The notes beneath the pieces were generated by a model. That model saw only the letters and a list, made by a program, of their open reading frames with translations, did no database searches and was not told the DNA's origin. A stretch of DNA of 59,348 nt, filler included, from Dugesia japonica (lineage: Eukaryota): NCBI GenBank assembly GCA_001938525.1. It is 5 parts of 5 records of this genome, joined end to end, with 100 filler letters (N's around TTAATTAATTAA, not from the genome) between each part and the next. Parts side by side here need not be neighbours in the genome. Positions count along the whole stretch, not along the records: positions 18,395 to 35,542 come from MQRL01593615.1; 4 more parts are not named here. One strand, written 5' to 3'. Below, in pieces: positions 7,564 to 47,322 of the stretch (position 1 is the stretch's first letter; each line of letters opens with the position of its first letter). Made by a program: the position numbers and the translations under genes.

Positions 7564-7608
<45 letters not shown>

Positions 7609-16315: not shown

Positions 16316-16553
16316 GTAAGATTAATATTTATTTTTCTTATCAATATTTTGTCTTAAAATATTTCCTTTATCTTTAATCAATATTTGCAAATAAAAATTA
16401 TTAAATTAATTATTAATTGATTATTATTAATATTATTAAATTTATTTCAATATTTTTTAATTAAATTTTTTATCAATTGCTTCAATAATTTAATGATTAA
16501 ATTTAATATAAAACGCACAAATTTCATTTTACATGTTACTTAATTGAGTTTAA

Positions 16554-19326: not shown

Positions 19327-19351
19327 GTAATTTTTCATAATTTTTCAAAGA

Positions 19352-19531: not shown

Positions 19532-19605
19532 AGTGGAAAGAAGCTGAGAATAATGAACAAAAAACGATTTTAAACAAATGAATGGTATGTATTATTTTAA
19601 TTAAG

Positions 19606-19931
19606 ATGAAATTACAAAGAAGCATTCCATTTTTACAGCTTTCAAAACCTTTTAGAATGAGAATTTTACAATCATTTCCACCAAATTCTTTAGATGATTT
19701 ACTTGAAATTATTATAAATATTGTTCGTGGTAATGTAGATTTAAGTGCAGCCAAAAATGAAAACATTGAAAAAACATAGAAAACTTTATTTACGCTTGTA
19801 AACACAAAAAATACAATGAAATACACTAAAGAAATACAATGATACGAGTAATAAAAAATCATGGAGGTGGCTTTCATGCAGAATTAATACCAATTGCATT
19901 AGCTGCATTAGGCTTAATTCATTTCAAATAA
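19606..19931 (+). pseudogene. Conserved small Polinton virion-module protein with a hydrophobic C-terminus
   Basis: PFLQL..RILQ..LLEIIINIVRGNVDLS..(frameshift)..KNHGGGFHAELIPIALAALGL; matches the E..xNIxxGNVxL / GGF pattern. Confidence 0.75.
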
Positions 19932-20457
19932 ACAATGGTTGACGTTATAGCGTTATTATTAATAATTACAATAGACTTAACTCAAATGAACAATGAGTGG
20001 ATGGCAATCATTACCTAATTTTGACATGAAATTTGCATTGAGTTGTTGTTATGGAGATAAAAATGAAGACAATATAGACATGTCAAAAAAACCTAGCAGG
20101 TTTTCGAGGCATAGAAAATTCATGAAAGCAGCTCAAAAACGAAACGAAAGACAAAAGTGGTTATCTGGTCATCTGGCGTACAACCTGAACAATCTAATAT
20201 TGAAACGATTTCCAACAAGAGCATATAAATCATAGTATTGATGATTTATGACCAATGAACCTAATTGGGATGATTCCGTATTTAAATTTGTTAGAGGTTA
20301 CAAGTATATGCTAATATGGATTCAATAAATTTTCAAAATTTGATCCTGTTAAATCAAAGGAACTTGAAAGAATAAACAATACTATGTAAATTGATATGAA
20401 TAAGAAAACCAAGTTGAATAGTATCAACACAAATAACCAATCAAAACAAAAATTTAG

Positions 20458-20780
20458 ATGAAATCAAATAATTTCTATATGCTTTTACCCAATAATAGTA
20501 TTCCACTAGTTCATCCAAATAATAATGCTAGTAATTACATTGTTCAGCTTCAAAATACATTTTACATGGTTAGTAGTTGGGTAGTTGCCATGATGAATTT
20601 CACTTTTGTATATTCAGCCATGCCAATTTACAGTCAATCTATGATTGCATATACTAATCATTTAAACTAATTGAGAAGGAACTAACAATTGTTGTTAACC
20701 ATAAAAAAAGAAAACGTTCTTTTAACTGTTACTAGTAAAGACAAATTATAAACTAATTTGGAAACAGTAATACAATTTGT
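20458..20780 (+). pseudogene. Polinton minor capsid (penton-like), 5' part
   Basis: FYMLLPNNS...HPNNNASNYIVQLQ......WVVAM matches FYxxLPSNS..PxNxxSxFxVxL..WEVxL. Confidence 0.85.
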
Positions 20781-20859
20781 TAGAATTATTATTTCTTAAG
20801 TGTTAAATTTTTTTTATGTTTCGCTGTTTTCTTTGATGTTATTATTTGCCTCTAACCAT

Positions 20860-21010
20860 TCTAGAAAAATATTTTTTGTATTGTTGAATTTAACATGAAT
20901 TCAACCTCTGGTAATAACTCAACAAGATTTCTATGCATTTTATTTTTCTGGCATATTTGAATTGCATCTTAGATAGTTCTGAATAAACAATCTTTCAAAA
21001 GGATGATACC
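20860..21010 (-). pseudogene. Possible retroviral-type integrase fragment
   Basis: YHP..ERL/LFRTI*D...LVELLPEVEFMLNSTIQK across a frameshift. Confidence 0.35.
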
Positions 21011-23520
21011 AACGTACAATTATCGTATCCCAGAAATTGATAGCAATATAGAAGAACTCAGAAATAACCTTTTAGAAACTTACAAATATAATAAGAATAT
21101 CAAATCTAAAGCAATAAAAACAAAATTATTAAAGAAATAAAGAATTTGAAATCAATCATCATCAGTCCAACAGACAAAACAAATAAATTGGTAGCTTTAC
21201 ATGAACAGACATACAAGGACTTCTACTCTAAACATCTGAATAATTATGAGACCATCATCCATAAAAGACTACCAATTACGGAAGAGAATAAATTTAATAA
21301 AGAANNNNNNNNNNNNNNNNNNNNNNNNNNNNNNNNNNNNNNNNNNNNNNNNNNNNNNNNNNNNNNNNNNNNNNNNNNNNNNNNNNNNNNNNNNNNNNNN
21401 NNNNNNNNNNNNNNNNNNNNNNNNNNNNNNNNNNNNNNNNNNNNNNNNNNNNNNNNNNNNNNNNNNNNNNNNNNNNNNNNNNNTTATTGAATTTTGTTCC
21501 AGCACATTTGAAAAATAGTTATGAGTTTGTTGAACGAATTAAAAGTTATGACTGTAAAAACGATGATCAATTTGGTTCATTGGATGTAACAAATCTTTAT
21601 GGATCAATTCCCGTTGAAGAACCGGAAAATGTCATCGATATTGTGAGTGATTTCTTTGAGAGATATAAAGAACATACAGATATTCCTGAAATCACNAAAA
21701 ATGATTTCAAATCTCTTATTAATTTGTGTCTATTCTCTGACAGCATTTTTATCGGTGAACAACGTTTTAAAAAAAAGTGGTCTGGCAATGGATAACAATT
21801 TTTCTCCTATTTTAGCGATACTTTTTATGATCTTCATTGAAAATAAAATTATTGTCAAAGATGAACAGAAGATACATCTTTGGTTCAGATATATANNNNN
21901 NNNNNNNNNNNNNNNNNNNNNNNNNNNNNNNNNNNNNNNNNNNNNNNNNNNNNNNNNNNNNNNNNNNNNNNNNNNNNNNNNNNNNNNNNNNNNNNNNNNN
22001 NNNNNNNNNNNNNNNNNNNNNATCCAAAAGAAACCTGGTGAATTATTACTTACCCAGTTGTATATGAAACCATTTCACAGTAGACATATATTACCTTGTA
22101 GTAATACTACCATCAGGCAGAAAATTGGAATAATCTAGGGTGAAAAAATGAGAGCTGAAAGACTATCTACAAACGAAGAAATAAGACTGACTTCCCTCAG
22201 GATGATAAAAAATAAATTTCGAAATAATGGTTATCCAAATAGAATTGTATATAAACATCTATACGCAAATACAGAATTTTATAAAATCAAACAAAAGACA
22301 AATGCATTAATTAAATTTCTTATTATTAATGAGAAATATAGCCAAATAATGCAAAATATAATTAAAAAGTCGAAACTAAAACACAATCCAAGAATTATAT
22401 TTAAAACACAAGNNNNNNNNNNNNNNNNNNNNNNNNNNNNNNNNNNNNNNNNNNNNNNNNNNNNNNNNNNNNNNNNNNNNNNTCCCAAATGCATTTGTGA
22501 TGGTAGAAATATATGCAATAAATAAAATATCACTTACAAAATAACATGCACCTTATATAAAGATACATATATAGGAGAATCATTCAGAACCATCCGCACA
22601 AGAATTAAAGAACATCTGAAACAGAAAGAAAGTGAAGTCTTCAAACACTTTCGAAACAAACATAATGTTTTACCAGAAAATTATCATGTTACATGGAAAA
22701 CATTAGGAACAGTCTACACTTCTACACTTCACAGAAAGAAACATGAGCAGATTTTAATTAAAGAAGATAAACCTCAGATTAATGTAGTGTTCAACAATTA
22801 CAATATTTGAAAAAATATTTTTGATTAAAAAAACAGTTTATATCAATATCTATAAATAATATGTTTAAAATAAATATATTTTTTATATTAAAAATATAAA
22901 AAAACGAAATAATATTAATAAAATATAATATTAATAATATTAATTAAATACATTAATTAGTTGTCCTAATACGAATTTGAAAGAAACTTTTAAAAAAAAA
23001 TTTTAGTTCAAAAAAAATTAATTTTATAATTTTGTGTAAAATTAGTTCATTTTTGAATGAATTTTAAAAAAAGAATTTTTTAAAAAATAACATTTATTTA
23101 TAAAAAAACACAAATTAAAATTTTTAAAAATTTTCAAAAAATACGAAAATTTAAAATTAAAAATTCTAAGTATAATAAATCTAAAATATCTAAAAGGCTT
23201 TTCTGTATAATTTAAAAAAATTTTTTGAAATTTTTTGAGTTGATTTAAAAATAAAAATTAAAATCATTAAAATTNNNNNNNNNNNNNNNNNNNNNNNNNN
23301 NNNNNNNNNNNNNNNNNNNNNNNNNNNNNNNNNNNNNNNNNNNNNNNNNNNNNNNNNNNNNNNNNNNNNNNNNNNNNNNNNNNNNNNNNNNNNNNNNNNN
23401 NNNNNNNNNNNNNNNNNNNNNNNNNNNNNNNNNNNNNNNNNNNNNNNNTATTTTAATGAAATCTCAAATGCGATCAATGGTTAAGTCCAACAATTATTCT
23501 CAAAATAATTGTAATTATAA
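21000..23520 (+). mobile_element. Penelope-like retroelement: RT plus GIY-YIG pseudogene ~21000-22810, pLTR end at 23450-23520
   Basis: PTDKTNK; FGSLDVTNLYGSIP; GLAMDNNFSPILA; WFRYI; LYMKPFHS; NGYP; ITYKITC....TYIGESFRTIRTRIKEH; KPQIN. Confidence 0.93.
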
Positions 23521-23559
23521 ATTTCTATTTTGAAATAAAACTAAACGTGTTAAATTTAA

Positions 23560-23936
23560 TAAAATCCTAACAATGTCATTAGGATTAAAAGAATCGCAAT
23601 ATAATCGATTTAATTTGGTGATAAACAACTACAATACGAAAATATCAAGAAACCTAGAATATTAAAGAGTTATAATGAAATGTGCATCTATTGTAGTATT
23701 GTTGAACCTATTGTTGTTGGTGATGTGTATGTTTCTTAATTAAAATCAGTATGGATAGAACAAAATGAAAATAATAAAGTAGTTTAAATAATTGTTGATC
23801 ATTCAATGTATTTACATATTTATTCATCATATATAAACAATATAGAAATTAATATAATATATGAAAGCGAAAAACTAATCAACTTTGCTGAAGACTCAAA
23901 AACACATTTAACGTTACATTTTAGAAAAGTCAATAA
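23560..23936 (+). pseudogene. Polinton minor capsid (penton-like), 3' part
   Basis: MCIYCSIVEPIVVGDVYVS*LKSV...MYL....INNIEINI...LTLHFRK. Confidence 0.88.
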
Positions 23937-24372
23937 TGTATCCTGATATTGTATCGTTGTATAGTACTAGTCAAGCCGATGAAGAATTACCTTACTTTCT
24001 TGGAAAGCAGTATGGATCTGGTTGGTTGAGAACAATAGGTAGATTTGATTTGCCAATTCTTAAACGTATTGGTTCATTTAGTATGAAAACAGCTCAGGAT
24101 GTACTAATTAATAATGGAGAAATACTACCAATATTGAAACCATAATCATTAGCTGAAAATGTTATGTCATCATTGCCTAGCGGAGTAACCAGTATGATTC
24201 AAAATGTAGCAGGTATATAACCTCAAAGTATAACAACTAAAATACCATCTAAAATAACTAATATGCTAAAAAATAAACTCAAAACAAAACCAACTAATAA
24301 AAAACGTAAAAAATCTCGCGCATCACTTATAAACAAACGAATGAGAGGCCATGGAACAATATTTGAAAACTG
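23936..24372 (+). pseudogene. Polinton core-like protein with a QxGxG motif and basic tail
   Basis: LPYFLGKQYGSGWLRTIGRFDLPILKRIG...TAQDVL; C-terminus KKRKKSR..INKRMRGHGTIFEN; in-frame stops. Confidence 0.75.
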
Positions 24373-25587
24373 ATTTGCGGTAAAACTAAATTATGTAATT
24401 TTATCGACCATCGCCACAAGCTGTAATTGATAGTGGTACTTTTGAAGATGTCTTTCATATGAATTCAATTTCAGAATCAAAGAACAATTTAGAGTTTTTA
24501 ATAAATAGATTTGCAACAGAATATTTAGATGTGAATGATAATTTATTGTATATTAAAATGAAGGTAAGAGATAAGGATGGTAAAGATATGGCTGACGGTG
24601 ATGATACAGTTCCTAGTAACTATATGTTGTTACACTTTTAAGGATTTAATTCTTTCGTTTAATAATTTCAAAATTGAAGGGGGAAATGGATCTTATATTC
24701 ACAAAGCATTGATTAAAACTATTATAAATTATAATGGCGATAGTAAGAATATATGTTTTACAGCAACAGGATATGGATCAGAAGCAGATAGAAAAAAGTC
24801 TATTAAAANATCAAAACAATTATCTCTATGTAGTCTATTACAATTCAATTTCATGGATCAGCCAAAATACCTTATTTCCGGTGTCAATGTTCATATTCGA
24901 TTGAAATGAGCATCTTCTAAGATTTCTTTGGAATCTGCAGCCAATGAACTTTAATATGTATTAGTAGATGTAAAATTAATAGTTAGGCGTGTATGCGTTG
25001 AACCCTCAGTACTAGCTGCTTATCAACTAGTACTAAAAAGCAAAATGTTGTTTTTCCAATAAGAATCAAGGAAGTCATTGCATTTGCAATTTGTAAAGAT
25101 AGCTCATAATTTTATAAAAAAACAAATCTTTAGTGATCGTCGATTACCCAGCTTTATTCTGGTTACATTTCAAAGTGTAGAACAATATAATGGTAGTTAT
25201 AAAGACTTGAGTTCAATATTTCAAAATCTACATGCTGCTTCCGTTTCCTTGACTAAAAACACTGACTATTGAGAAATATATACTCAAGATTTTACAAACG
25301 ATAATTATGCCACAACATATATGAAATCCATAGTAAGAAATTTGGGATATTTGAATAAGAATATGAATTGTTGAATAACATTTCAAGATTTTAAGGAGAA
25401 TTATCCTTTCTTTACATTTTTTCTTGTTCTACATTTTGATATAAATCAGAGTCAATTACCTCCACAAGGAAATTTGAGATTGGATATCAAATTTGCCAGG
25501 GGTTTAACAAGATTGGCATATGTTATAATTTATGGAGTATTTGAAAAGGAAATTCAGATTAATACTAACAGTACAGTATAAGTGTAA
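24351..25587 (+). pseudogene. Polinton major capsid protein (double jelly-roll), copy A
   Basis: LEFLI...EYLDVNDNLLYIKMKV; SYIHKALI; QPKYLISGVNVHIRL; KLIVRRV..PSV; RLPSFILV; YNGSY; GNLRLDIKF; IIYGVFEKEIQI. Multiple stops and frameshifts. Confidence 0.92.
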
Positions 25588-25595
25588 ACAATACT

Positions 25596-25923
25596 ATGTA
25601 TTCTTGACACAACTGCAATAAAGTAATACTTATTGCTTAATTTTTTGTATAATTTATTAATTTTATTCAGATAGAACGGAGTACATCAACGTTACTTGAA
25701 TCAACATATTTCAGTAAACAATGCCTTAATCGTCAATACTCATATAACATATTTATGTGAAGAACAATGGAAAGCTGTTTACAATAAACCTGCTGAAATG
25801 GTGGTATTTGATCCATTAGCAATTTATTATCCGTCAATGTTGGTGTCACATTTTTCAAAATTATCAAAACCAATGAAATTCGATATCAAGATTCGTTTAC
25901 TTGTAGGCAACAGTGTTTATTAA
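25596..25923 (+). pseudogene. Adenain-like cysteine protease, copy A
   Basis: LIVNTH....EEQWKAVY......FDPLA...Q..S.TC.QQCL, a degenerate IVNT..GEHW.A..FD..G..Q..CG..C; position after the MCP is as expected. Confidence 0.7.
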
Positions 25924-26129
25924 AATAAGCAACATTACAGATGAAATACTTATTTGCATGTATTTGTAGTATACGAAATATATGTTTTATTGAAAAAAAA
26001 TCTTTTTCATTTATTTTGACTAAGACGATAGAAAAACATTACTTTTGTATAATCCTATGTTATAATAAATTATTGTATGGAAATAAGAAAAATTATTATT
26101 CAAATCTATTTATAAAAACAAAAATAATA

Positions 26130-26410
26130 ATTACATCAATTCTGTCTAAGCAAATAAAGTAACACAACGGATGCCAATAGAGTTACAAAAACAAATTTAA
26201 TTCTCTTTTGGTTTTTTAATTCTTCCTTAATTTTGTCGATGAATATTGATCAGACAATGAGTTCAACATAGTCATGTTTATTCAATAGATCATTGTCAAT
26301 CTTGCTTAGGAATTAAATTTCATCAACGGATCCACTGGTAATTGCACTTGCCAATTTCTTAATTTTCTTTCCTCCTGATTCATGTTGATAGTAACTTCAA
26401 ACTGTAAAAA
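26130..26410 (-). pseudogene. Small Polinton-associated ORF, paralog 1
   Basis: KLASAITSGSVDEI*...KHDYVELIV*SIF, homologous to 27030-27300. Confidence 0.45.
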
Positions 26411-26634
26411 TGACTTATTTTACAAAACTTACTGTTTATATACTTCTTGCGAAACATACATACATACTCGTTATTTGTTAATTTTTATTAGTCGTTACAT
26501 GTTTAAAAGGAAATGAATGGGTATTATTCATTTTAATATGATTGGATGAAATTTGTTTTAAATGATTTGATTTGTTATATAAAATCATAAATATTCAAGA
26601 ACATGACGCGAGCATGCATTTTGCATGACTACCT

Positions 26635-26935
26635 CATATTACATGGTTACTATGTAAATAATACCCGCACAAACCATATATTACACAGTTGCTATGTAAA
26701 TAATACAAGGTAACTGTGTAAAAAATATACTCATAAACCCTAAATATTTATAAAAATATTTACTTATTAGTTTTTTTTATAGACTTATAAAGTATTTATA
26801 CAGTAATTTTAAGTTACAGATATGAAAATGCTCCACACTCATAAACCCTATACAATCATAAACCTTATACACTCATAAACACTATACACTTCTAAACCTA
26901 TGTAAATAGTACAATCACAAACCCTATAAAGTTAT
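26635..26935. repeat. Tandem (TA)CACTCATAAACCCTA units and TTACA-N-GTTRCTATGTAAATAATAC repeats
   Basis: At least six CATAAACCC-type units and two copies of an imperfect palindrome, read directly. Confidence 0.75.
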
Positions 26936-27029
26936 AAAAGTTTTACTTATATGTTTTTTATATAAATAAAGCAAGAAAGAAACAAAGTTATTATTCAACT
27001 CTATTTATTAAACAATCCAAAAAAACAAT

Positions 27030-27300
27030 AATTACATTGATTTCGTTTGACCAAATGAAACATCACAACATATGTGAATAGAGTCACAGCAAAAAATTTA
27101 ATTCTTCTTTGTCTCTTCAGTTCTTCCTTAATTTGTTCATGAATATTGAACGGACAACAAGTTCAACATAATCATGTTTACTCATTGGGTCATTTTCAAG
27201 CTTCGTTAGGAATTGAACATCACCAACGGATACGATAGTAATTATATCTGACAATTGTTTTCATTTCAATTTCCACTTGATTTATATTGAGAATAATTTT
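27030..27300 (-). pseudogene. Small Polinton-associated ORF, paralog 2
   Basis: KQLSDIITIVSVGDVQFLTKLENDPMSKHDYVELVVRSIFMNKLRKN. Confidence 0.45.
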
Positions 27301-27829
27301 TAATTGTAAAAATATAATAATAATTACATCAATTCTGTCTAAGCAAATAAAGTAACACAACGGATGCCAATAGAGTTACAAAAACAAATTTATTTAATTT
27401 ATTTTACAAAAACTTCAATTGAAGGAGTAATTATCACCAGAAGGAGGATATCAAATTTATTAAGTGCACGACTTAAAGAAAGGAAGTAGAAATACTGAAT
27501 GGTGTGGAGAAATTGAACCAAAACGTATTCCACCAACCAAATTGCTCAATACTAAGCTACCACTATGAAAGCAAATTACCAGTAACATCTTTTAAAGTAA
27601 AATGGGACATGTCACAGGAAAGAATAAAAATGACAATTGAGCTCTAAACGATTAAATTGTCAGAAGTGCTCAAATTGAGTAAGGAAGATTTGAAGTAGCT
27701 AATCGCAAGAATAGTCGCAGAAAACGAACTGAGATACTAACAATGGTCGAAGCTTACCATCAATCAAACCAAGATGTACCTAAAGAAATCGGTTACATGA
27801 TAAAATTACACAGGAAACAAGTTTCATCT

Positions 27830-27912
27830 CTGTGTAATTTTTTCCTGTAATTTTTACCCGTGTAATTTCGTCTTGTGTAATTTTTTCTCGTGTAATTTAT
27901 TCCCGTAAACTT
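27830..27912. repeat. ~15-bp tandem repeat with a GTGTAATTT core, likely a MITE subterminal array
   Basis: Five to six units, running into a gap. Confidence 0.75.
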
Positions 27913-28234
27913 NNNNNNNNNNNNNNNNNNNNNNNNNNNNNNNNNNNNNNNNNNNNNNNNNNNNNNNNNNNNNNNNNNNNNNNNNNNNNNNNNNNAATGC
28001 ATAGACAGAATTTTAGTCCTGACACACCAATATCATAAACCCACAAAAAATTATTTCCAAGATCTCCACACGTCACTGGAGACCAATTTCACTCTTACAC
28101 ACCCATATCCACACACCACCTCAACTTTACCTACTTTAAATTAACACACACAAAATTGAAAAATTAAAAATACACACGCACACACTTTAATTGAGATGTT
28201 TTAAAACTTCTTCATCACTATTTTCCACATCATT

Positions 28235-28790
28235 TAAACTCTATGAAAGACTATTGATTTAAAGTTCTTTCAAATTTCCGAATATTATTAAGCTTTATTG
28301 ACATGCTTGATTCTTCAAACACTGATTCAGAAATAAATATTTCATATACATATAGTCTATTTCTACATTTCTTATCAACTTCATCTTTTTAGAGAATAGC
28401 TAAAATGATCTATATAAAGCATTTATTGAAATCGCTTTTTTTGCAAGATTGGCGGATGTCAGTATATAACTATTCACCGATAGTCTGCTTGTATTTTCTA
28501 CTATGGTGATTTTGAGGTTCATTTCCTAAATCCTGTCGAGTATCCAACTGGAACTGAGCTCACCCTTACTAGCAATTTTTATTGTTTAATTGCTTTATTA
28601 CATAATCGAAAAAACTATCATTTAGTGGAATAGCACGATTTGATATATACGACAAGATTTTATTTCTTCATCCCTTATAAACTCAACAATTGATCCAGAA
28701 TTTGATTTTCATATCTTTTTATTCTTCTTTTCTTAAGCAGTTGGATATTAAAAATATACGATTGCAATTCTTAACTGTTGTTGTAAATAT
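28235..28790 (-). pseudogene. Polinton protein-primed DNA polymerase B, N-terminal fragment
   Basis: SSWILDRI*EMNLKI...LSVNSYILTSANLAKK..DFNKCFI*IILAIL...RNRLYVY...LNNIRKFER matches the GSGW..GSSYIxLP..KK..DxKCFxWxILA..R...Y..IxKFE block. Confidence 0.7.
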
Positions 28791-29809
28791 AAAAGTTACA
28801 ATAAATGTATATAAATTGACAAAAATAGTCAACTGCTAGTTCGAACCAAAGCTACTTCCTGCAATAAGACCTGTAAAATATGACCCTTTATGTGTAAATG
28901 TGTTCTCAACAAGAAACATTGTAATACATGGACAAAAAATTAAAATTTTTATGGAAATATGGATAATATAATATCAGATTTAATCAATTTGAAGGAAAAA
29001 TATATAAAAAATACTCAACACTTAATATATAATCAACATTTTAGCAATTCATATACACACACATCAACATTTTGGAAAAATATAAATCAACATTTTCCTT
29101 ATCAATCTAGCCTTCATCTTTTTACAAAAATAATTTAAACTCACAAAACAATTTGTCATCTGTAATACTACTTCCTAACCTTTAAACTTTATCTTACAGA
29201 AAATAAATCAACAATCAGTCAAACCATCTCAAAACTAGTACAATAACCTTGTTCCATATGCCGCACCTTCACAACAACACCAAATTCATTCAAATCCCAC
29301 AACTACTTACAACACCAGACACTTTTTCACAAAAATGCCATATAACTCATTGCCATGAGACTCACAACTTTCTCAGCTCCTTACGCATTTTATGCCATAA
29401 GTCCTTTAAGCAATGTGTAAGTTGAATTTGTAAATAATTTTGTGACATCATTTATGTAATTATGCTACAAAATATTTAAAGAATTTTTAAAAAATTCAAA
29501 ATTTGGATTGGTCATTAATAATAATATCATTTGATGAAAGTCTTTCGCTAAACCTTGATCTTCATTTTGCAAAATTCAAAGAAAAAGTAAAGAGTTTACA
29601 TAAATCATTTTTGTTCAGTAGTAGATCAATTCAAATTAATGAACTAATGTTTTAATTAACAGATTTTTATAATTTTTTGTTCAAATTGATGAAAATTAAA
29701 TTTTTTAATTCAAAATAAAAGATTTTCATGATAGTTTTGTTTAAATTAAGTGAAATATATCAAATTACTCATCATTTGAGGTGTAATAATAAGCTTAACA
29801 AGGATAACA

Positions 29810-30722
29810 TGATTAACAATTCATAAAATATTTGCACAATGAATACATAAGTAAAATATCCCCCGATCAATGTTAATATTAATCGTTTACTGGCAATATT
29901 AATGTTAACATTTGTCACTCCATGGTAATTTTAAATTTTAGGCGCTCCTCCGGTAATGAAAACATTTTCTAAGGTGATGAAATTATTAATACTTTTATTA
30001 GCTGTTTTCCCGAGAAGAATAATTATTAATTTTTATGTTTAGGTAAAATTATTAATAATATCATTAAAAATCATTCTCATACGTTATTTGAATAACAGTT
30101 TTGTTTTTCTTCCATACATTACCTCCTTTGACATATCAAGTTGAGCAGTTGACTATTCACATCAGATCTCAAATCGTAAAGGCTCAAGACCATTAGTATC
30201 AAGCCAAGATCGTTCATAATCAAATTTATTGATTGGCTTGCAAATTTTTAGCTAGACTAAGCTCGCGTACAGTACGTGAATTTCCAGTAGCAGTGCTTCA
30301 GATTGTTCATATTCGGTCTTAAATGTACGCCACCATATTTATGAGATAAAAACAGCTAATCATTGTTGCCAATATTTGGCTAGACCCAGATACATAAAGT
30401 GGTCAAGACTTCAAACTCGGATGTTATTAATTCCATATTGTTTAAAAAACGTCATTACATAAAGTTATTACCATTAAAAAAGTCATAACAATAAATCATT
30501 ACCGTCTAATAAAAATCATTTAAAAAGTTAATATTTAAAAAATATTATTATTAATTAAAAAGTAAATCCTGAATTATTGTCAGAGCGACAAATGTTAACA
30601 TTAATATTACCGGGGAGCATTAGTGTTAACATAAATATTGCTAGAGAGCACTAATGTTGATATTACTCGGAGGACATTTTACTTTTTTATTCATTGTGTA
30701 AATATTTTATCAATTTTTAACC
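29810..30722. mobile_element. Foldback/MITE-like element with ~110-150 bp imperfect TIRs
   Basis: ATAAAATATTTGCACAATGAATA...GTTAACATTTGTCACTC is the reverse complement of GAGCGACAAATGTTAAC...TATTCATTGTGTAAATATTTTAT. Confidence 0.7.
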
Positions 30723-30884
30723 ATCCAGAGGAAAATTCCATTGCAATTCCTATGCGATTATAGAATGATTATGGAATCAGTAACGTAACAATTTATTACT
30801 GCTTTTCGATTTCATAATGATTATGTAATGCTTATGTAATCACGTTATGACATCATAAATATTACGTATTTCTTGCTTAATTCC

Positions 30885-31095
30885 TGGATGTGAATGGGAC
30901 AAGTAGCACTTAAAACTGTTTATAATGCTATAAGAAGCAGTCATTTAAGGAATCAATGAAAACCAACCAATGAATGTGTGGTCGGATGTGAAGGAAAATT
31001 TTATTGCTGCTTTAAAAGAAGTTGTTGATGGACCAAATAGTAGTGAAATACATAAACAAAAGAATAAAATAACATCGACAATAAACAAAAGATAA
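30885..31095 (+). pseudogene. C-terminal remnant of the core-like protein, module B
   Basis: GQVALKT...SFKESMK...TSTINKR (cf. ASLINKR in module A), directly before MCP-B. Confidence 0.45.
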
Positions 31096-31102
31096 AGTTT
31101 AG

Positions 31103-32500
31103 ATGCCAAATAAGATTGTATGCGAAAAAACTGAATTGCTGCTATTTGACTACAATATACCTAAGGTTGTTGAAGGCACAACATTTAAATAAATTTACCT
31201 AAGAAATTCTATAATCAGGTATGCTGGACAACAAATTGAATTCAGTTTTATTGGTTCAGATAATGATTACTTGGATTTTAATGATACCTTGTTTCTTATT
31301 AAAATAAAGACTGGAAATAAACCTTTCATTGCTTGACAATACCGACATGATTCCTTCCAATTATTCGCTTCACATTATACTCAAAGAAGCATTAATATCG
31401 TTAAATAATGTTAAGGTTGTTGATACAAACGATACATAAATGCAAAAGGTTGTTGTTAGGAGAGTTTGGAAAACTCATCGAATCATTAACATCAGAATTC
31501 AACTCCATAAATTTATTAAAATAAAACTATAACATCAATAATTTTTTAAATAAACAAATTTAAAAATTCATATTTAAAAACGGAAAATACTAAATATTTA
31601 ATTTTATATTTTAAAAATCCTTAAATTTTAGTAATTTATTTTATAAATTATTTTCTTGATACAATTTTAAATATACTTTTGATTTTAATAAATTCCGTTT
31701 TAAAAAATTGATTATCATAAAGACGATGATAAAAGTAAAGTTGGATTAAAAAGTCTGCGAAGCTTATACTATTTAGTGAACCGTATCTTGATTATTTTGA
31801 TCAACCAAAGTTTTTTGTCGTTGTTAATATGAAAATCAAGTTGACAAAAAATGTTGGTTTGGTAGTTTAAAAATAAACCAAAGATAATGATACAGTTGAA
31901 TAACTCTACAGTCATATATTATAGAATCAAAATCAGTAATGTGCCGTGTTTGTGTTGATCTATCGGTTGTATTTAGACATCGTGAATGATTAGAACATCA
32001 AAATGCAATCTAACTTTTCCAAATAACAGAAATCGTGTATTTTACATTTCCAAAACCTTACATGGAGAATACAAAGGTAATCTCTTTCCGATGAATGATT
32101 ACCGACATTTATTTTGGATTCTTTCGTGATTATGGCTCATTTTGTTCAACATTCTTGAATTTCAGTGTAAAGGCAAGAAACGTTGATTATCAAACACATA
32201 TACCACTGATTTTGATAATGAAAACACCGAGGTATATGTACAATCAATTATTCATAAATTAAGTTTGTTAAACGTAGACCAAACCAATGGCATTAGTATG
32301 AAGGAATTTAAAGATTCTAATATTTTGGTTTCCTTTTATTAGCTCCTTGCTTTTAAACTTATTAGTTCCAACTACCGAAAACCGAAAATCTTAAGTTAGG
32401 TGTGAGATTCCATAAAGCCTTGATGGAAAAGTGACAATATATGCATATGATGTATTTGCTTTAAAAATTCCAATCGTCACAAATAATATAATAATTGTAT
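31103..32500 (+). pseudogene. Polinton major capsid protein, divergent copy B (AT-rich insertion at ~31460-31710)
   Basis: MPNKIVCEKTELLLFD..QIEFSFIGSDNDYLDFNDTLFLIKIK; YFDQPKF; SVMCRVCVD.SV; LPTFIL; QLP..NLKL..VTIYAY. Confidence 0.85.
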
Positions 32501-32574
32501 GAAAAACGATTTTTATATTCATATATTGCAAAGGATGAAGTATGGATGTTTTGCGAAAGAATGTGTTTTTATTA

Positions 32575-32885
32575 GCAGTAATTTGCAGATTCAAACAATA
32601 TTGAAACGTGAGTTGGGCAGTAGCCGATTAAAAGGAGAATATTTATTGAAGCGCTTACCTGAAATTTTACAAAATGGATTCTTTGTAATCAATATTAAAA
32701 TTTGCCGAGAATATTTATTTGTTCAAGAATATTTAGAAGCTATTTTTGAAGTAAAGATTATATTTTATATTTTTTGTTACATTTTAAAAATTCTTAACAC
32801 TTGGATTACAAAAACAGAAATATTTGAGAGAAAAACTGGATGATATTCCAGATTCGCAATTCAAAAGTCTAAATAAAACTTAACT
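32575..32885 (+). pseudogene. Adenain-like protease remnant, module B
   Basis: NLQIQTILKRELGSSRLKGEYLLKRLP...FFVINI......EYLEAIF resembles NxxQI..FxGVYxxDxLP..VIN..EHWxAI; follows MCP-B. Confidence 0.5.
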
Positions 32886-32904
32886 AACAAAGCATAATTA
32901 ATTA

Positions 32905-33105
32905 ATGTTAATCTATTGGTAGTATTGTTGAACCTATAATTGTAGGTAATGCTAGTATTCCTAACTTGGATCCAATGTGGATAGAAAAGAATAAAAATGA
33001 TGAAGTAGTTCAAATAATAGTTAAGAATTTTATTTATTTGCCGATTACTTCATCATGATTAAAACAATAAAAAACTAAAAGTCGAGATGATAACGGAAAA
33101 TTAGC
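32905..33105 (+). pseudogene. Minor capsid 3' remnant, module C
   Basis: SIVEPIIVGNASIP...WIEKNKNDEVVQIIVKNFIYLPITSS...RDDNGKL; closely parallels 23690-23880. Confidence 0.8.
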
Positions 33106-34415
33106 TCATATTCGGAAAGCATTAACTAAAACCATTTATCAATAAAATGAAGATAGTAAGAATATTTGTCGTATAGCTTCGAGATAAGAAGATGATGCAA
33201 ATAGAAAATTATTTGTTAAACTAAGTAAACATTTGTATGTAGTTCCTTTCAACGTACTGACGAACCTTGGTTAATTTTACCGATGGCTCAACAGGATTGT
33301 TTGTTCGAAAAATAAATCGTAAGTCACCGGTGACCTACGTGGCGCACTGGTCAACAACTGCGTAGGTAACCCGTGACCTAAGTGTTAACAAAAGTTAACT
33401 TTGAAAAAAATGCTTCGCATTGATAAATGTACTGCCAAAATGCTGACTACTTTCAAAGCATGCTCTCTTAAATTCTTATATGCATCTTCTTTTAGGAATT
33501 TCTTATAAAAGTATGTAATATTTTCAGTAGCAAAAAATATATATTCCTAAGTTCATTGTTACATTGTAAGTCTATTAGTTCTAGTTGATATTTTGCTGGT
33601 ACAGAAATTACGACAAGAATATATCAAAATATAACAATGATCTTACTTTATTTTTTATTGCAATCTTTACTATCACAACAATCCTTATTAATTTTTATTA
33701 ATTCTTTTTGCTGCATAGTATATATCTTTTATTAAAAAATAGCCAAGAAATAACAATTTTAAAACCAAATATTAGACAATCATTGTTATTACAGTATATT
33801 TTCATTTATTTAGTATATTTTACTATAATAATAATTTCAGCTTGAAACACAGTAAGAAACAATATTATTACAAAAAATATTAAAAATTTTCATTTTTGCA
33901 ATATTACTTAAGAGCCACAGGTTGCCCACCCCTGGTGCAGAACCTTCGGTATTATATAGTTATCAAAATGTATTAAACTAAAAATATGCAATTTATCCAC
34001 TAAAAACAATGAAATTTGCTTTCTTTGCAATTATATAAGGAGCAAATCTTTAGTAATCAAGGATTTTCGAACTTTATTCTAGTTAACTGTCAAAGTGAAA
34101 ATCAACTTAATGGTAGTTATAAAATCATTAGTTTCACATTTAATCATTTCAATGTTACTTTCATAACTTTATTTGGTATATTTAGATAAGAATATAACAA
34201 GCGGAATTCCACCTGATGAACTTTAGAGTAAATCGCCGCTCTTTACATTTGTTCTTGCTACAGATTTTGATATAAATGAAAGTCAATTATCTCAGCTAGA
34301 AAATTTTTGATAAGATAAATAGTTTACAAAGTCTTAATCGATACCAGTATATGTAGTCATTTATTGATTATTTCAAAGTGAAATCCAATTAAATGCCAAT
34401 AGAACAGTTCTTTAG
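33105..34415 (+). pseudogene. Polinton major capsid remnant, copy C (5' deleted, split by a hAT insertion)
   Basis: HIRKALTKTI..EDSKNIC..ANRK; EPSVI..YAIYP; NGSYK; LFTFVLATDFDINESQL; FQSEIQLNANRTV. Aligns by eye with copy A. Confidence 0.8.
33265..33934. mobile_element. hAT (Charlie-like) non-autonomous insertion
   Basis: Right end GAGCCACAGGTTGCCCACCCCTG; left end degenerate; interrupts MCP-C. Confidence 0.6.
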
Positions 34416-34424
34416 TTTAAACCA

Positions 34425-34770
34425 TATTGATATCTTATGTGATTGAACTACATGAAGCAAGTCTTTGTTAAATATACATGATTTTACGTTATTAGTTCAA
34501 TTGAGATTAATAAAATTGGAAAACAATGGCTTAGATCAACTATTTATATATGTTAATGAACCAGAATAGTTAATACTCAAACATCAAATATTCATGGAGA
34601 TCAGTTAAAAGTGGTTTATAATTAACCTGTAAGTAGACTGGTAATCGACTGACTTGGATATTATTATACAACTATACTGGTGTCATATTATTCGAGATTA
34701 TCAAAACCGATCGTACACAACAAAGTTCAAAATAAAGATTCATCATTGTTTTACAATTTATATTTTTAAA
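34425..34770 (+). pseudogene. Adenain-like protease remnant, module C
   Basis: IVNTQTSNIHGDQLKVVYN*P...D*LGYYYTTILVSYYSRLSKP...QNKDSS; parallels 25725-25905. Confidence 0.7.
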
Positions 34771-35542
34771 ATTATAACAATTAAATCTGTAAACTTTTCA
34801 TTTAAAACAAAATTATATATTCCAAATTTAATAAAAATTTATAAGCAAAAATAAATTTTCAAAGCTAAAAATAAATTTTCAAATTGCAAAACTGAAATTC
34901 TAAACCAAAATTTATTTTTAGAACACTAATAAAAATTACAAACCAAAATTTTTTAATCCGATTTCGAAAATAAGATTTCCAGTCTAAAATAATAAATAAT
35001 TCAATCCAAAAATTAATTTTCAAACTTGGATTTTACAAACAAAAAATTTTCATACATAAAATTATTTTACAAAGTTGAAATTTAATAACTTCGAATTTAC
35101 AAAAGTAGAGTATTCATAGTTAAAATTTGTAAATTTATAATTCGCAAAAAAAATTTAATACCTGAAATGACAAACTAAATATTTTCTGTATAAATTTCAG
35201 ATTTCTTTAAAATCCAACAAAATTATATAAATAGAAGATTACTCAAATGTTTAAAAAAATATTTAAAATAGGATTTATTTAATTACCAATCGACAGGCAA
35301 TCTGTCTGTCAATTTCATGACAATATAAGTTAATGGAATGGTTATTGATATTCAAAAATGCGAATTTATTTATCTTTTTGTGACATATTTCCTTAAGGTA
35401 AGAAATGATATTTTATAAAATTAACCGTTTGAATTTTCTCTCTATAAAATAAATAGATAAAAATTTGCTCTAAATTATTTTACTTACATTAAAATTTATT
35501 GAATTTACGCATAATTAATAAAAATATTAATAGAATTACTAA

Positions 35543-35642: not shown

Positions 35643-37554
35643 AAATATCCCAAATTTAAAAAGAAATAAAACATAAGAAACAAAAAACTAGTAAACAATA
35701 AAAACAAATCCAATCCAAAAGAACTAAAGAACATTTTAAAGAAAATCAAAATCGAACCACAAAACAAAGTAGTACTCACAACAGAATATGTACTAGTAAA
35801 AAAACGTTTAGAAAAGGCTTTGAATCAAAATATTTAGACCGATTCAGATTAATCAAAGTCGACAAAAATGTCGCAACGAAGAAAATATGGCGACGAAGTT
35901 AAAATAAACCTTAGAAGAACCAAACTATATAATACAAAAAAAGAAAACAAGCATGTATCATTAAACACACGAAACGTAATAAAACTTTTCACAACAAAAA
36001 CTTAACCAGATAACATAAACTACAAAATAAAACCCAAAAACTTTAATTACATTCAAACAAAGCTAAACAAAAGAAACAACTCATATTGTTTTAGTGTTTT
36101 TTACATGTTTTTTGTCTATTTTTTTTACTTGTCAAGTACATTACACAGCGCCGGTTTGAACATTTGTGGGGCCGTGTGCGAGATTAGCCGCGGGGTTATT
36201 TTGTTTATTAATTTCCTTTGCTTTTTTTCAACCTAAGAGATTGGAATCTGCTATAATAATTTACTAATATAAAATATGATTGACATCACATCGTTCCATA
36301 TAAAACATATTTCAATAAATTATTTACCAACTTGCATAACTTAAACAAAAATATATATACGGTGCATACATATATAACAATTTTCATTTTTATCTGGATA
36401 ATATCAGTATTCTGAAAACTCCAATGTAATCATAATTTTGAAAAATGGAAATCATTAGTATCTTTATTTTATTGAAATAGAAACCCAAATAATAAACTTA
36501 TCTATTTAAAATGCACAGAATTAAGTAAATTTATTGTAGTTTTGAGAATAAATTTATGAATTTAAGTAAATTTCATNNNNNNNNNNNNNNNNNNNNNNNN
36601 NNNNNNNNNNNNNNNNNNNNNNNNNNAAATATCCCAAATTTAAAAAGAAATAAAACATAAGAAACAAAAAACTAGTAAACAATAAAAACAAATCCAATCC
36701 AAAAGAACTAAAGAACATTTTAAAGAAAATCAAAATCGAACCACAAAACAAAGTAGTACTCACAACAGAATATGTACTAGTAAAAAAACGTTTAGAAAAG
36801 GCTTTGAATCAAAATATTTAGACCGATTCAGATTAATCAAAGTCGACAAAAATGTCGCAACGAAGAAAATATGGCGACGAAGTTAAAATAAACCTTAGAA
36901 GAACCAAACTATATAATACAAAAAAAGAAAACAAGCATGTATCATTAAACACACGAAACGTAATAAAACTTTTCACAACAAAAACTTAACCAGATAACAT
37001 AAACTACAAAATAAAACCCAAAAACTTTAATTACATTCAAACAAAGCTAAACAAAAGAAACAACTCATATTGTTTTAGTGTTTTTTACATGTTTTTTGTC
37101 TATTTTTTTTACTTGTCAAGTACATTACACAGCGCCGGTTTGAACATTTGTGGGGCGCGAGATTAGCCGCGGGTTATTTTGTTTATTAATTTCCTTTGCT
37201 TTTTTTCAACCTAAGAGATTGGAATCTGATATAATAATTTACTAATATAAAATATGATTGACATCACATCGTTCCACATAAAACATATTTCAATAAATTA
37301 TTTACCAACTTGCATAACTTAAACAAAAATATATATACGGTACATACATATATAACAATTTTCATTTTTATCTGGATAATATCTGTATTCTGAAAACTCC
37401 AATGTAATCATAATTTTGAAAAATGGAAATCATTAGTATCTTTATTTTATTGAAATAAAAACTCAAATAATAAACTTATATATTTAAAATGCACAGAATT
37501 AAGTAAATTTATTGTAGTTTTGAGAATAAATTTATGAATTTAAGTAAATTTCAT
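35643..37554. repeat. Near-identical ~930-bp direct duplication (35643-36576 and 36627-37554) across a gap
   Basis: The copies differ by only a few SNPs and indels; probably assembly or haplotype redundancy. Confidence 0.9.
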
Positions 37555-38906
37555 AAGAAAAATATAAACAAAATGATCATGTTAAATTCATTATGAATTA
37601 AATGAGACAAATAACAGTTTCTTCTTTTTTCTTGCCATTTTGAATGGTAGTACGATTAAGATGATCTTTTAAAACCGGATCAAATCGAGCAATCAGTTCT
37701 AATAAACCTAAAAGGTTGCCATTGTGTGGTGAATATAGCGTATCACTACTTTCTCGGAAAGATAAATTATGTTCAGATAAATATAAAATTGCTCCGATTA
37801 TACATTCAAAAACCTTTTTCCAACGACATGTTTCAATACCAATTATCCGTTCATGTTCTTGATCTATTGTATTACAAATTTTTAGATTGTGTTCGGTTTG
37901 AAGAAAAGTCTGCATAGACTTTATATGATGCACTGATTGCTCAAGCGCTTTAAGCATTTGACTCAAATGAATTCAATCATTAAAACTATTATTGTGTAAT
38001 GATACATCAGTTTCNNNNNNNNNNNNNNNNNNNNNNNNNNNNAACATACTTTGTTAATAGTTTTCGAATATATTAGCCATCGTCTTTTTAGAGTTTGGCC
38101 GTTTGTAAATTTTCTATTGTGATATTTTTTAGAAAAAGATCTTTTATTTTTGTCTATAGGAAAATAGAAATTATTTATTTGAACAAGACCATGACGAATT
38201 AAAGCAATTCTGATATGTTTCGATATTTTACTTGGCCATGTACCAGGGTCTTCAAAATCTAATAGATTAATTTCTTCTGCGGTTTCAATATCGGGGTTTT
38301 TTTTATTCAAAATCATTACAGGGTTTTCTTCTTGTGGATCACTCTCAAAAATAATATTATAACTTGCCTCATTATTATTTTCTTCAAATTTGTTACCAGC
38401 ACCATCAGTATCGGTATCTTCAACTTCCATATTGCGACTGTGAGCTTCTACTTCTACAAAGACATATTTTAGCATACTATTACTTTGCTTTTTCTCCAGT
38501 AATTCACGCNNNNNNNNNNNNNNNNNNNNNNNNNNNNNNNNNNNNNNNNNNNNNNNNNNTTACTTGGCCATGTACCAGGGTCTTCAAAATCTAATAGATT
38601 AATTTCTTCTGCGGTTTCAATATCGGATTTTTTTTTATTCAAAATCATTACAGGGTTTTCTTCTTGTGGATCACTCTCAAAAATAATATTATTACTTGCC
38701 TCATTATTATTTTCTTCAAGTTTGTTACCAGCACCATCAGTATCGGTATCTTCAACTTCCATATTGTGACTGTGAGCTTCTACTTCTACAAAGACATATT
38801 TTAGCATACTATTACTTTGCTTTTTCTCCAGTAATTCACGCTTTAATTTGTTAAGTTTTTCACTTCCACTAAAATATTTTCTTCCTCGATCTCGATCTCT
38901 TCCCAT
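37130..38906 (-). mobile_element. hAT element (ZMYM1/Tip100-like; TTF zinc finger and DUF4371-type region) with 3'-deleted transposase
   Basis: SGSEK..K; DPGTWP; RSFS...NG...RRWLIYS; LSEHNLSFR..NGNLLGLLELIARFDPVLKDHL; terminus CAGCGCCGGTTT at 37130. The 5' part is duplicated across the gap at 38510-38559. Confidence 0.88.
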
Positions 38907-39589
38907 TTTACCAACTTAAATGTATACAATATATAAATATAGACAAATCTGCTATTTATACNNNNNNNCTGAGTATATATTTACCTATTTACCAATAAGA
39001 ATTATAATATCTATTATATTATAAACACAAACACTAGAAATTAATTATTTTTATACAAATTTAGCAAGTTCAATTTAAATACAAAAAATCTAAATACAGG
39101 ACACCAACCAATCCGATAGAATTCTCATAATGTATTGACAAAAATACAAAGTTGGAATATTCTTTGGTTTTTCCAATATTTTCAAAAACAAAGCCAACTG
39201 CAACAGAGCCAACTGCAACTATAAATTTGAATTTTCTTTAAAAAAAGTTTGAATTTGAATTTCTACCAATAGGGANCCACTAAATTTTTCCAAGTTAAAT
39301 TAACAAAAATAATAATGTATACATTTTTTTAGGTTTAAAAAAGCATTTAAAAACTTTTAAGGAAATTGATTGAATTCAAGGAAAGTTTAATATATTGTAT
39401 AAATTTTAAATTTTTTACTAGTATTTAATATATATTTCTTAATATTTCTAGTATTTGAATTATTTGTAAAAATTTTTGTTTATTGTGAAAGTTACCTTTT
39501 TGCTAATTATTCACTTTTTTCAAATTTTGAACAATTTATTTCTGAATGATAAAATTAAATATTTTCAAAAGTAAGAAAATAAACCAAGG

Positions 39590-46063: not shown

Positions 46064-47322
46064 CTACCATGATCAAAAAATACCCGGTCAACCCCATTTA
46101 AAATTCACACACAAATACTATAGATTTAAATCTTATTTTTAATAATTGCTACATATTTGTTTCAGTGCATAACCAAATTTCATCTGAACAAATTGTAATT
46201 TGAAAAAGCTACAGCAATTTATGTTAATATGTATGATATAATTGAACAAAGAATTTGTATTAAATTCTGCGTCAAAAACAATACAATACCTTGAAAATGC
46301 TATAGAAATGCTATGACAACAATGCTTTATCAAAATCAACAACTAATGCCAGTTTTAGATGGTCGTAAGACTGTAACAGACGATCCTAGATCTGGAAGAC
46401 CATCAACCTCAAAGAACGACAAAAATATCAAAGAAATAAATTCATTATTAATGGAAAACAGGAAATTGACTATCACAAAGATTGTTGAAAATGCAGGAAT
46501 ATCATATGAGACAGTTCAAACCATTTTGCATGCGGATTTGGATTGAAATATGATGCCGCAAGACTTGTTCCATGTGAATTGAACATTTTTCAAACATTTA
46601 GTCGTGTTGAAATTTCAAAGGACATGTTCTCTAACGTTGATTCTGATGAAACATTTATAAAATGTATAATTTTTGGTGACGAAGCGTGGGTGTTTGAGTA
46701 TGAAACTCAGATAAAACACCATTTAAGTCAATAACAGTCTCTGAAAGAGCCAAAACCGATAAATCCCCTGCATGTTCAGTCAAAAATGAAGGTCATGCTG
46801 ACCGTTTTCATCGATTAAAATGGAGTTGTACACCATGAATTTATTCCGGAATGTCAAACAATAAACAAGGAGTATTATCTAGGGGTTATAAGACAATTGC
46901 GTGAAGCTGTTCGTTTGAAAAGAAAAGATTTGTGGAGAAATAATTCCTGGATTTTACACCATGACAATGCACCAGCTCACAATGCAATAGTTATTGGAGA
47001 TTTTTTGCAAAAATTCAATACAAATTCCAACAAGCTTCGAACTCACAAGATATGGCTGTTTGCGACTTTTTCTTATTTAATAGGCTTAAAAAACCACTTC
47101 GAGGAAAACGTTTTGATACCCCTGAAGCGATCAAACAAAAAACAAAGGATGTATTGTTGAATATACCAAAGAAGAAGTTACAGAAGGCATTTGAAAATTG
47201 GATTACACGCTGGCATATGTACATTGAGGTTAATGGATACTACTTCAAAGGTAACAATTAAAATTGTGTTGAAATAGTTTCATTTTAAATTGAGTTGATC
47301 GGGTATTGTTTGATCAGGGTAG
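46064..47322 (+). mobile_element. Full-length decayed mariner (DD34D)
   Basis: TIRs CTACCATGATCAAAAAATACCCGGTCAAC vs reverse complement CTACCCTGATCAAACAATACCCGATCAAC; DDPRSGRP; ARLVPCEL; GDEAW; HHDNAPAH; DMAVCDFFLF. Confidence 0.95.

Follow-up and report, generated by a model that had tools for sequence, protein, structure and literature searches.

The question raised by this locus is whether three relics of major capsid protein (MCP) genes, A, B and C, all on the plus strand of Dugesia japonica DNA, stem from one virus-like element or from several. The window, i.e. the whole stretch of DNA analysed, comprises 59,348 nt of assembly GCA_001938525.1, and positions 18,395 to 35,542 come from MQRL01593615.1; the genome is AT-rich and the surrounding stretch is rich in repeats. 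A sequence-only reading proposed three capsid/protease modules in tandem, of two divergent types, arising either by repeated integration or recombination or from one ancestral element with two capsid sets. We find the three MCP relics but not three whole modules, and we put at roughly 75% the probability that they derive from three broken Maverick/Polinton insertions, an ordinary fossil pile-up.

A is a long Maverick/Polinton fossil with plus-strand relics of ATPase, integrase, MCP and protease genes, of putative PZ, penton and core genes and probably of a TBP-like gene. It was compared with L004, a near-complete relative (the only one read) with the same gene order, and with L005. The packaging ATPase relic (18682-19321; tblastn E = 2.6e-40 with the L004 ATPase, which matches Pox_A32) has a profile score of 453 vs about 50-60 in other tiles, and this A32/FtsK-like gene is present in A only and absent from B and C. 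It is followed by a putative PZ-like gene relic (19577-19919; tblastn E = 0.003 with the gene that follows the ATPase in L004, profile score 104), the name being suggested by position (PMC8097293) and a faint Adeno_PX match in L004. The start of an rve integrase (20059-20362; tblastn E = 3e-5 with L005 and 2e-4 with L004) is likewise confined to A, where the remainder of the gene was not found; the L004 integrase matches rve and Chromo. The relic at 20464-23934 is, by gene position and motifs, presumably that of the penton (minor capsid) gene; it survives as one piece at 20464-20714 (profile score 182) and another at 23516-23934 (score 302; shuffle maxima for both, 32-34), between which lie a Penelope-like retroelement (GIY-YIG at 22526-22807) and N gaps. 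The putative core (PW-like) gene relic (23930-24370; tblastn E = 1e-14 and 1e-11 with the genes between penton and MCP in L004 and L005, respectively) is followed by a full-length MCP relic (24370-25578) with five stops and four frameshifts and an adenain-type protease relic (25598-25922; homology from 25726).

B had been taken to adjoin A; however, 5,193 bp and an assembly gap of 83 N (27913-27995) lie between the A protease and the B capsid. A TBP-like relic (28630-28942, plus strand; tblastn E = 2e-8 with the L004 gene after the protease, which matches TBP; score 102 vs a tile median of 41) is probably the 3' accessory gene of a Maverick, either A or a further copy; none of the papers listed by a literature search on TBP-like genes in polintons was relevant. 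Between this relic and B stands a 0.9-kb MITE-like element (29809-30724) with 126-bp inverted ends that are 78% alike (self-blastn).

B consists of a capsid gene and a protease of which no more than the first third is left. Its near full-length MCP relic (31115-32499, plus strand) has seven stops and 11 frameshifts and holds an AT-rich insert of ~200 bp near 31470-31690. The core tail reported upstream of it is at best weak: the score of a possible basic tail of 10 residues (31046-31092, plus strand) was reached by 36 of 200 shuffles using A's core alone and by 6 of 200 using a three-sequence profile. Nor is the B protease whole, since its homology is confined to columns 7-48 of 123 (32571-32693, plus strand), short of the columns that hold the catalytic His and Cys; the score of this stump was reached by 0/300 and 0/100 shuffles and is the best of 76 window tiles, and plain BLASTP and tblastn with intact proteases missed it. 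The 114-aa ORF at 32499-32843 is a chimera of the B protease start and penton-derived DNA; a protein search with it gave no match among three candidates, and BLASTP against an intact protease and an intact penton was blank.

As stated earlier, 30885-34770 is free of assembly gaps (N count zero), and the proposed ~20-bp spacing between B and C is of the right order, the last protease-like codon being at 32693 and the first penton-like codons at 32720-32788. The B/C joint (32693-32788) leads from mid-protease of B to mid-penton of C. C, described as a module, comprises the last 40% of the penton, an MCP with deletions and a foreign insert, and a protease, all on the plus strand, and lacks the penton end, the core gene and MCP columns 1-103. 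The penton part (32720-33103; score 180 vs a shuffle maximum of 29) is 42% identical in amino acids to the A penton over 107 columns and is directly fused to MCP columns 104-172 (33089-33282). The insert of 657 bp (33283-33939; score 23 vs a shuffle mean of 28) replaces about 40 MCP codons and has no capsid homology, and beyond it MCP columns 213-406 (33940-34412) carry two internal deletions, seven stops and two frameshifts. The protease relic (34449-34739) has three stops and two frameshifts; its catalytic His column is lost, as in A, and is kept in none of the three copies. Extension of the C penton back to 32664 by DNA alignment was dropped (35 vs a shuffle maximum of 42). The remainder of the B protease and the starts of the C penton and C MCP are in no window tile on either strand, and a joint from mid-protease into mid-penton is what a deletion spanning two adjacent elements leaves behind.

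An adenain-type protease after the MCP is thus represented by relics in A and C and by the N-terminal third in B; in the relatives, the L004 protease matches Peptidase_C5 (E = 1.3e-7) and those of L002 and L003 are below the cut-off. The penton and PW/core positions have homologues in A, L004 and L005 with no Pfam name, C being without a core gene and that of B weak. No pPolB was detected in the window by tblastn with the L004 polymerase, and the best profile tile scored 93 vs 74-89 for the next three (17-37 kb), so none of A, B and C is classed as an intact element. None of the three has terminal repeats or a 6-bp target-site duplication that we could find, inverted repeats enclose neither a single copy nor B+C nor A+B+C, and the end motifs AGTAGT/AGAGAG occur only as scattered hexamers; separate integration is therefore something we infer, not something we see. 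Outside the assembly, scans of viral_contigs gave no relative, three metagenome loci are only 1.5-2.1 kb and too short to show whole elements, and an Atlas search with the start of A's core gave only matches under 0.9.

The MCP homology is clear for all three copies, with frameshift-aware profile scores of 990 (A), 368 (B) and 220 (C) vs 24-33 in shuffles (five each; 25-33 for B). Lesions per aligned codon were 9/404 in A, 18/392 in B and 12/~225 in C, and near-invariant columns were kept at 54/95 in B and 32/51 in C. Pairwise comparison bears out that A is more similar to C (43-46% amino-acid identity) than to B (34-35%), and the motifs DSKNIC, FDINxSQL and SxLSKP are indeed all present in both A and C. 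At the DNA level identity among the three copies is only 49-66% (A-C ~65% in register), and we discarded the reading in which C is an allele of A, collapsed or doubled. Third-position mismatches are in excess between A and B (1.56, p = 1e-5) and between A and C (pooled 1.43, p = 0.0045), in a protein-guided alignment that favours a low second-position count; this indicates that the lineages diverged while still coding.

In trees computed with FastTree on 76 rows and with a quick IQ-TREE run on 36 of those rows, A and C form a subclade with P0001 (support 95-97 and 90, respectively), the closest intact relative, which is 70% identical to A. B falls outside this subclade but within the same 49-member MCP clade, so that "two divergent types" overstates the difference and B is not a distant capsid type but a second subfamily. 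Where B belongs within the clade we are unsure: an exclusive A+B+C clade was rejected (p-AU 0.03), a position inside the A/C subclade was not (p-AU 0.30), and the end branch of B is 1.26-1.37 long. The P0001 model (pLDDT 86.8) matches capsids of iridovirus, PBCV-1, Sputnik and mavirus with E down to 3e-17, and from this relative, as distinct from the window copies, the family is predicted to have the double jelly roll fold. Pfam lacks a model for the penton and for this MCP clade (~406-412 aa), and nine full reading frames spanning the three copies matched none of its families; a sequence search of PDB gave no significant match.

The pile-up of three insertions would have come about as follows. 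Three separate Mavericks, A and C belonging to one subfamily and B to another within the capsid clade they share, would have come close together within a transposon-rich region, and each copy would have decayed once integrated. One or more deletions over B and C would have cost B its right end and C everything left of mid-penton, fusing the protease stump to the penton stump; a further deletion within C would have taken the core gene and the capsid start, and other mobile elements would then have inserted inside and between the pieces. Of the earlier proposal of repeated integration and recombination, close integration followed by rearrangement fits. The make-up of the pieces, their decay, their kinship and the non-homologous nature of the joint are seen directly; the separate integrations and this order of events are what we infer. 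The shared orientation of all three pieces, with a chance of 1 in 4, is left unexplained by this reading. Chromodomains of chromoviruses prefer silenced chromatin, and by analogy the integrase chromodomain may steer Mavericks into such repeat-rich DNA; a literature search on integration hotspots returned no papers.

Both subfamilies are dispersed repeats of this genome. Summed contig depth over three DNA runs from three studies, which is not a copy number and is inflated in some bins by AT-rich inserts, stood at about 10-15 where pieces are unique, at 36,000-107,000 in the bins from core to protease of A and at 1,100-4,500 in the 3' half of B, and the Maverick family seems very abundant. Nothing is left at the locus that is capable of particle production.

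Animal Mavericks/Polintons (Polintoviricetes; 'adintoviruses', PMC8502044; PMC8097293) likewise have a double jelly-roll MCP, an adenain-type protease, an A32-like ATPase and an rve integrase, and their order integrase - minor capsid - PW - MCP - protease (PMC8097293) is that of the locus if its putative penton and core genes are correctly named. Most genomic copies are degraded fossils, as here (96% of vertebrate loci; PMC8097293), and unlike intact Mavericks the locus has no intact gene, pPolB relic or terminal repeats, while its relatives differ from the compared Mavericks in that a TBP-like gene follows the protease. Polintons integrated in tandem, and deletion among them, have been described before: polintons and polinton-like viruses lie side by side, and deletions across two integrated viruses have been proposed as a mosaic route (10.64898/2026.10.13.758929). 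There the interest is in replicase exchange between partly intact genomes, whereas the present locus is without any replicase and its joint falls inside two structural genes, destroying both. As read, it is of little significance beyond being a fossil case of the side-by-side integration and deletion proposed to shuffle modules among polinton-like viruses.

Could C instead be an old local duplicate of part of the dead A, later parted by insertions, B among them? One tree pairs A with C as sisters (support 85), the two share orientation, and the genes of C are a subset of those of A. We nevertheless regard this as improbable, given that they are only ~65% identical with a third-position excess, that C is much more decayed than A, that the larger tree leaves the branching order of A, C and P0001 unsettled, and that their similarity stops at the protease (a likeness 3' of it was dropped, 72 vs a shuffle mean of 81).

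Also improbable, though compatible with the pile-up, is a piRNA-cluster-like trap that retains and silences viral and transposon sequence. Maverick pieces make up ~12% of the window, and relics of several other classes are dense (Penelope-like, Merlin/IS1595-like, mariner/Tc1-like and hAT-like, several matches being weak). RNA run X8 (about 6% read, 151-nt reads, i.e. long RNA), however, gave 32 of 10.5 million reads, 30 of them partial, with depth about 1 or less everywhere and thus no abundant long transcript in that sample. Moreover, there are Filamin-like exons upstream in the same orientation, so the locus may be no more than ordinary repeat DNA of an intron or an intergenic stretch, and chance neighbours are likely at such family abundance. 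Small-RNA proof of a trap for such viruses would, if true, matter.

We give very little credence to one ancestral element with two capsid/protease sets, B then C, whose middle was later deleted. B and C adjoin without a break, point the same way and have decayed to about the same degree, as in one insertion, multi-MCP genomes exist (PMC7805220), tandem morphogenic modules are reported in two metagenome contigs and two homologous modules with 70-78% nucleotide identity in one contig (10.64898/2026.10.13.758929), and L005 carries two penton-like ORFs in a row. Against this, the joint cuts both genes mid-way, no inverted repeats surround B+C, L004 has a single MCP (49/49 queries land at one place) and a single protease, depth over B differs widely from that over A/C-like DNA, and no B-like to C-like link elsewhere was present among the 15 of 334 joints listed. 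It is equally hard to credit that B and C represent one animal Maverick lineage joining modules of different subfamilies, whether freshly mosaic or like the Trimcap polinton-like viruses, which also have several distinct MCP sequences close together (PMC7805220); a Trimcap genome has three distinct MCP genes in one virus, whereas the locus has three decayed fragments of one MCP clade with no shared boundary, and several distinct MCP genes inside one element were not found here. If true, modules of both types, A and B, should turn up within a single terminal-repeat pair in other genome copies, and two capsid modules per mobile element would matter; we found no report of such an animal Maverick.

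An assembly artefact as the source of the tandem arrangement is scarcely credible: the window has many N gaps, near-identical duplicates lie beside 50-N gaps (35643-37554, 853-1636 and 38228-38841), none of the listed contig pieces spans the A-B gap and only one of three DNA runs has a listed piece crossing the B/C joint, and the public runs may include the assembly's own source, but DNA identity among the three copies is far too low for alleles that were collapsed or doubled, and zero-difference contigs link the TBP-like relic to the B capsid start (3/3 runs) and bridge the left (3/3) and right (2/3) edges of the insert in C. Misassembly may affect the A-B link across the N gap but is unlikely at the B/C joint itself, as a 354-bp contig from run X2 (32594-32947) bridges it with 0 differences.

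Relics were mapped with profiles built from intact relatives, which were aligned to the DNA with frameshifts allowed and shuffled DNA as control. The first of the three plus-strand Maverick/Polinton relics (A, starting at 18682) comprises by profile alignment an ATPase, a PZ-like gene, the start of an integrase, a split penton, a core gene, a major capsid protein (MCP) gene (24370-25578; five stops, four frameshifts) and a protease ending at 25922; its penton is interrupted by a Penelope-like element. The MCP of B (31115-32499) retains nearly all columns and carries seven stops, 11 frameshifts and approximately 200 bp of inserted DNA. The sequence-only reading had given B a core tail and a protease; the former is weak, its score being reached by 36/200 and 6/200 shuffles, and the latter is reduced to an N-terminal stump (32571-32693; columns 7-48 of 123), the score of which was equalled by 0/300 and 0/100 shuffles and which BLAST searches do not detect. 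Contigs from other copies diverge from the window at 32637, in the frame of the stump and with a protease-family motif (by eye). C opens with a penton relic (start 32720-32788; columns 187-327 of 339) that runs directly into MCP columns 104-172; a 657 bp insert (33283-33939) then replaces approximately 40 MCP codons, the MCP continues past it (columns 213-406, two deletions) and a protease follows at 34449-34739. Terminal repeats and a target duplication were sought for the insert and none were found; it opens with a short, GC-richer palindrome at approximately 33318-33380. Among window tiles of both strands, the protease C-terminus was detected in A and C only, the penton N-terminus in A only and the MCP N-terminus in A and B only, and the parts missing from B and C were absent from all tiles on either strand. 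The catalytic His column of the protease is kept in neither A nor C, and B is without it altogether. The sole ATG-started ORF of at least 80 aa within the A-C finding is 32499-32843.

With the longest capsid frame of A as query, 58 of 477 candidate proteins matched (identity 41-65%); the MCP relatives are mostly 402-423 aa and unnamed, and 49 full-length MCPs were aligned. The predicted structure (pLDDT 86.8) of the closest intact relative of A, P0001, gives matches with E down to 3e-17 to double jelly-roll capsids, those of iridovirus, PBCV-1, Sputnik and mavirus. Scanning of genome contigs yielded L004, a near-complete Maverick relative of 12.7 kb filed within a bacterial MAG, with the order polymerase-like ORF, ATPase (Pfam Pox_A32), small gene, integrase (rve and Chromo), penton-like, core-like, MCP, protease (Peptidase_C5), TBP-like and last ORF; the contig ends may differ from the element ends. 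We take the first ORF, from its motifs, to be a putative family B polymerase-like gene; its sole Pfam match is an endonuclease VII domain. L004 has a single MCP (49/49 queries land at one place) and a single protease, and its gene order agrees with the integrase - minor capsid - PW - MCP - protease module that PMC8097293 gives for Mavericks. The Maverick-like contigs L004, L005 and L006 are all filed in bacterial MAG records, probably through binning contamination. L005 has two consecutive penton-like ORFs (1520-2353 and 2750-3907), with the integrase on one side and the core on the other; identity across the initial 55 aa is 40% (E 7e-11), and the second matches the protein P0087 (E 2e-34).

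Amino-acid identity is 34.7% for A-B (360 columns), 45.5% for A-C (145) and 29.5% for B-C (129); using both pieces of C it is 33.6, 43.3 and 25.4%, respectively, and DNA identity 50.5, 65.7 and 48.7%. C is nearer to A than B is, as had been ranked by eye. Much of the difference is due to decay. Of the columns at least 95% conserved in the 49 relatives, A retains 81/98, B 54/95 and C 32/51, and when the observed identities are divided by these rates of survival, the estimates before decay are roughly 72% (A-B), 84% (A-C) and 71% (B-C), the relatives' own median being 57%; this correction is crude and tilts upward for B because the relatives were found using A. The 15 best matches of B among 175 MCPs (the 49 close and 126 wider) all lie within the 49, and two trees place B inside their clade, where it has a long branch and stays apart from the subclade of A, C and P0001; a position inside the A/C subclade was not rejected (p-AU 0.30) and an exclusive A+B+C clade was (p-AU 0.03). 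Local duplication of A as the source of C is unlikely. Identity to the own best relative is 56-58% for C and 39% for B; since B carries a similar lesion load to C and is yet further from its relatives, B is a second subfamily. The "two divergent types" of the sequence-only reading overstate a second subfamily of the same clade. The excess of third- over second-codon-position mismatches (1.56 for A-B, p 1e-5; 1.43 for A-C, p 0.0045, three genes pooled; 2.6 in the intact pair L001-L003), towards which the protein-guided alignment is biased, points to lineages that probably diverged while the genes were still functional.

The capsid pile-up is real but ordinary, a fresh example of a known phenomenon. 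In published work, 96% of the Maverick loci in vertebrates are degraded and some genomes have hundreds (PMC8097293), some corals carry hundreds to thousands of polintoviruses (PMC11131425), and tandem integration is described in several genomes including anemones, with deletions spanning two integrated viruses proposed (bioRxiv 10.64898/2026.10.13.758929). With a probability of roughly 0.75, copies of an abundant Maverick family would have integrated separately into a repeat-rich region, decayed, suffered deletion and received further insertions. The B/C joint may represent a deletion spanning two same-strand neighbours; alternatively, C could have inserted at the protease of B, both outer parts being lost later. 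Unequal crossover between capsid modules is excluded because the joint is non-homologous, protease to penton. The element boundaries are lost, and neither terminal repeats nor a pPolB relic were found around or in A-C. A piRNA trap, which would be compatible with such a pile-up, is improbable. One element with two modules is very unlikely, and the same holds for B and C deriving from an animal Maverick that carried two modules. The literature describes one contig with two homologous morphogenic modules of 70-78% identity (bioRxiv 10.64898/2026.10.13.758929), Trimcap viruses with three MCP genes (PMC7805220, PMC10120064), and adintovirus gene classes with modules exchanged between lineages (PMC8502044), and no animal Maverick with two capsid modules was found in the open-access text searched.

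Reads from three DNA runs (three studies, one possibly the assembly's own source) and one RNA run were aligned over 23449-35540; counts of contig pieces rest on 24 listed pieces, with 77,273 others unlisted, and misses are uninformative. Difference-free contigs at unique depth (approximately 10-15) link 28887 to 31275 in 3/3 DNA runs. Among the pieces listed, contigs of this kind also cross the B/C joint (32594-32947) in at least 1/3 DNA runs, and the left and right edges of the C insert in 3/3 and at least 2/3, respectively. The 83-N gap is bridged by none of the listed pieces, and the connection between the A protease and B therefore depends on the scaffold; a TBP-like relic lies on the B side, and Maverick DNA therefore precedes B regardless of the gap. 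Misassembly is very unlikely. Summed depth, which is not a copy number, is 36,000-107,000 in the A core-to-protease bins, 1,100-4,500 in the 3' half of B, 6,300-9,700 at the C capsid end and approximately 30 in the C protease, and identifies both subfamilies as repeats dispersed in the genome. Among 15 of the 334 joints, two connect A-like with C-like DNA at homologous positions in each of the three runs, which other family members would also do, and none connects B-like with C-like DNA. In the RNA run 32 of 10.5 million reads aligned, 30/32 partially.

The TBP-like relic (28630-28942; E 2e-8, in a high-depth bin) corresponds to the gene next after the protease in L004 (10246-10698), a single-repeat TBP-like gene (Pfam TBP, E 2e-10) whose protein matches PDB TBPs with E down to 1e-13. 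Nothing on TBP-like genes in polintons was seen in the literature search, and this gene is possibly more interesting than the pile-up itself. A 0.9 kb element with inverted ends (29809-30724) separates the relic from B. The stretch behind the A protease (26080-27395) is internally duplicated (copies 75-94% alike), with short repeated units at approximately 26700-26960 and high read depth, and matches no L004 gene.

The window is AT-rich (16-38% GC per kb), with many N gaps, filamin-like exons and relics from several transposon classes, and reads as animal genome DNA. Filamin-repeat exons lie on the plus strand at 11913-12191 and 16141-16374, tblastn of the window gave no additional ones, and the Maverick pile may lie inside an intron of a filamin-like gene or just behind it. 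The Penelope-like retroelement within the A penton (21000-22810; GIY-YIG match, RT-like frames judged by eye) has related fragments nearby, at 12462-13522 and 18395-18637 (inverted). Tc1/mariner-like, Merlin/IS1595-like and hAT-like transposase relics occur at 13560-14590, 15019-15651, 37598-38915, 46295-47258 and 48069-48233, some with Pfam matches, the first and third by eye. The longest ORF in the window (312 aa; 8263-9201, minus strand) has no Pfam match. Near-identical (95-99%) tandem duplicates flank 50-N gaps at 35643-37554, 853-1636 and 38228-38841 and are probably scaffolding artefacts.
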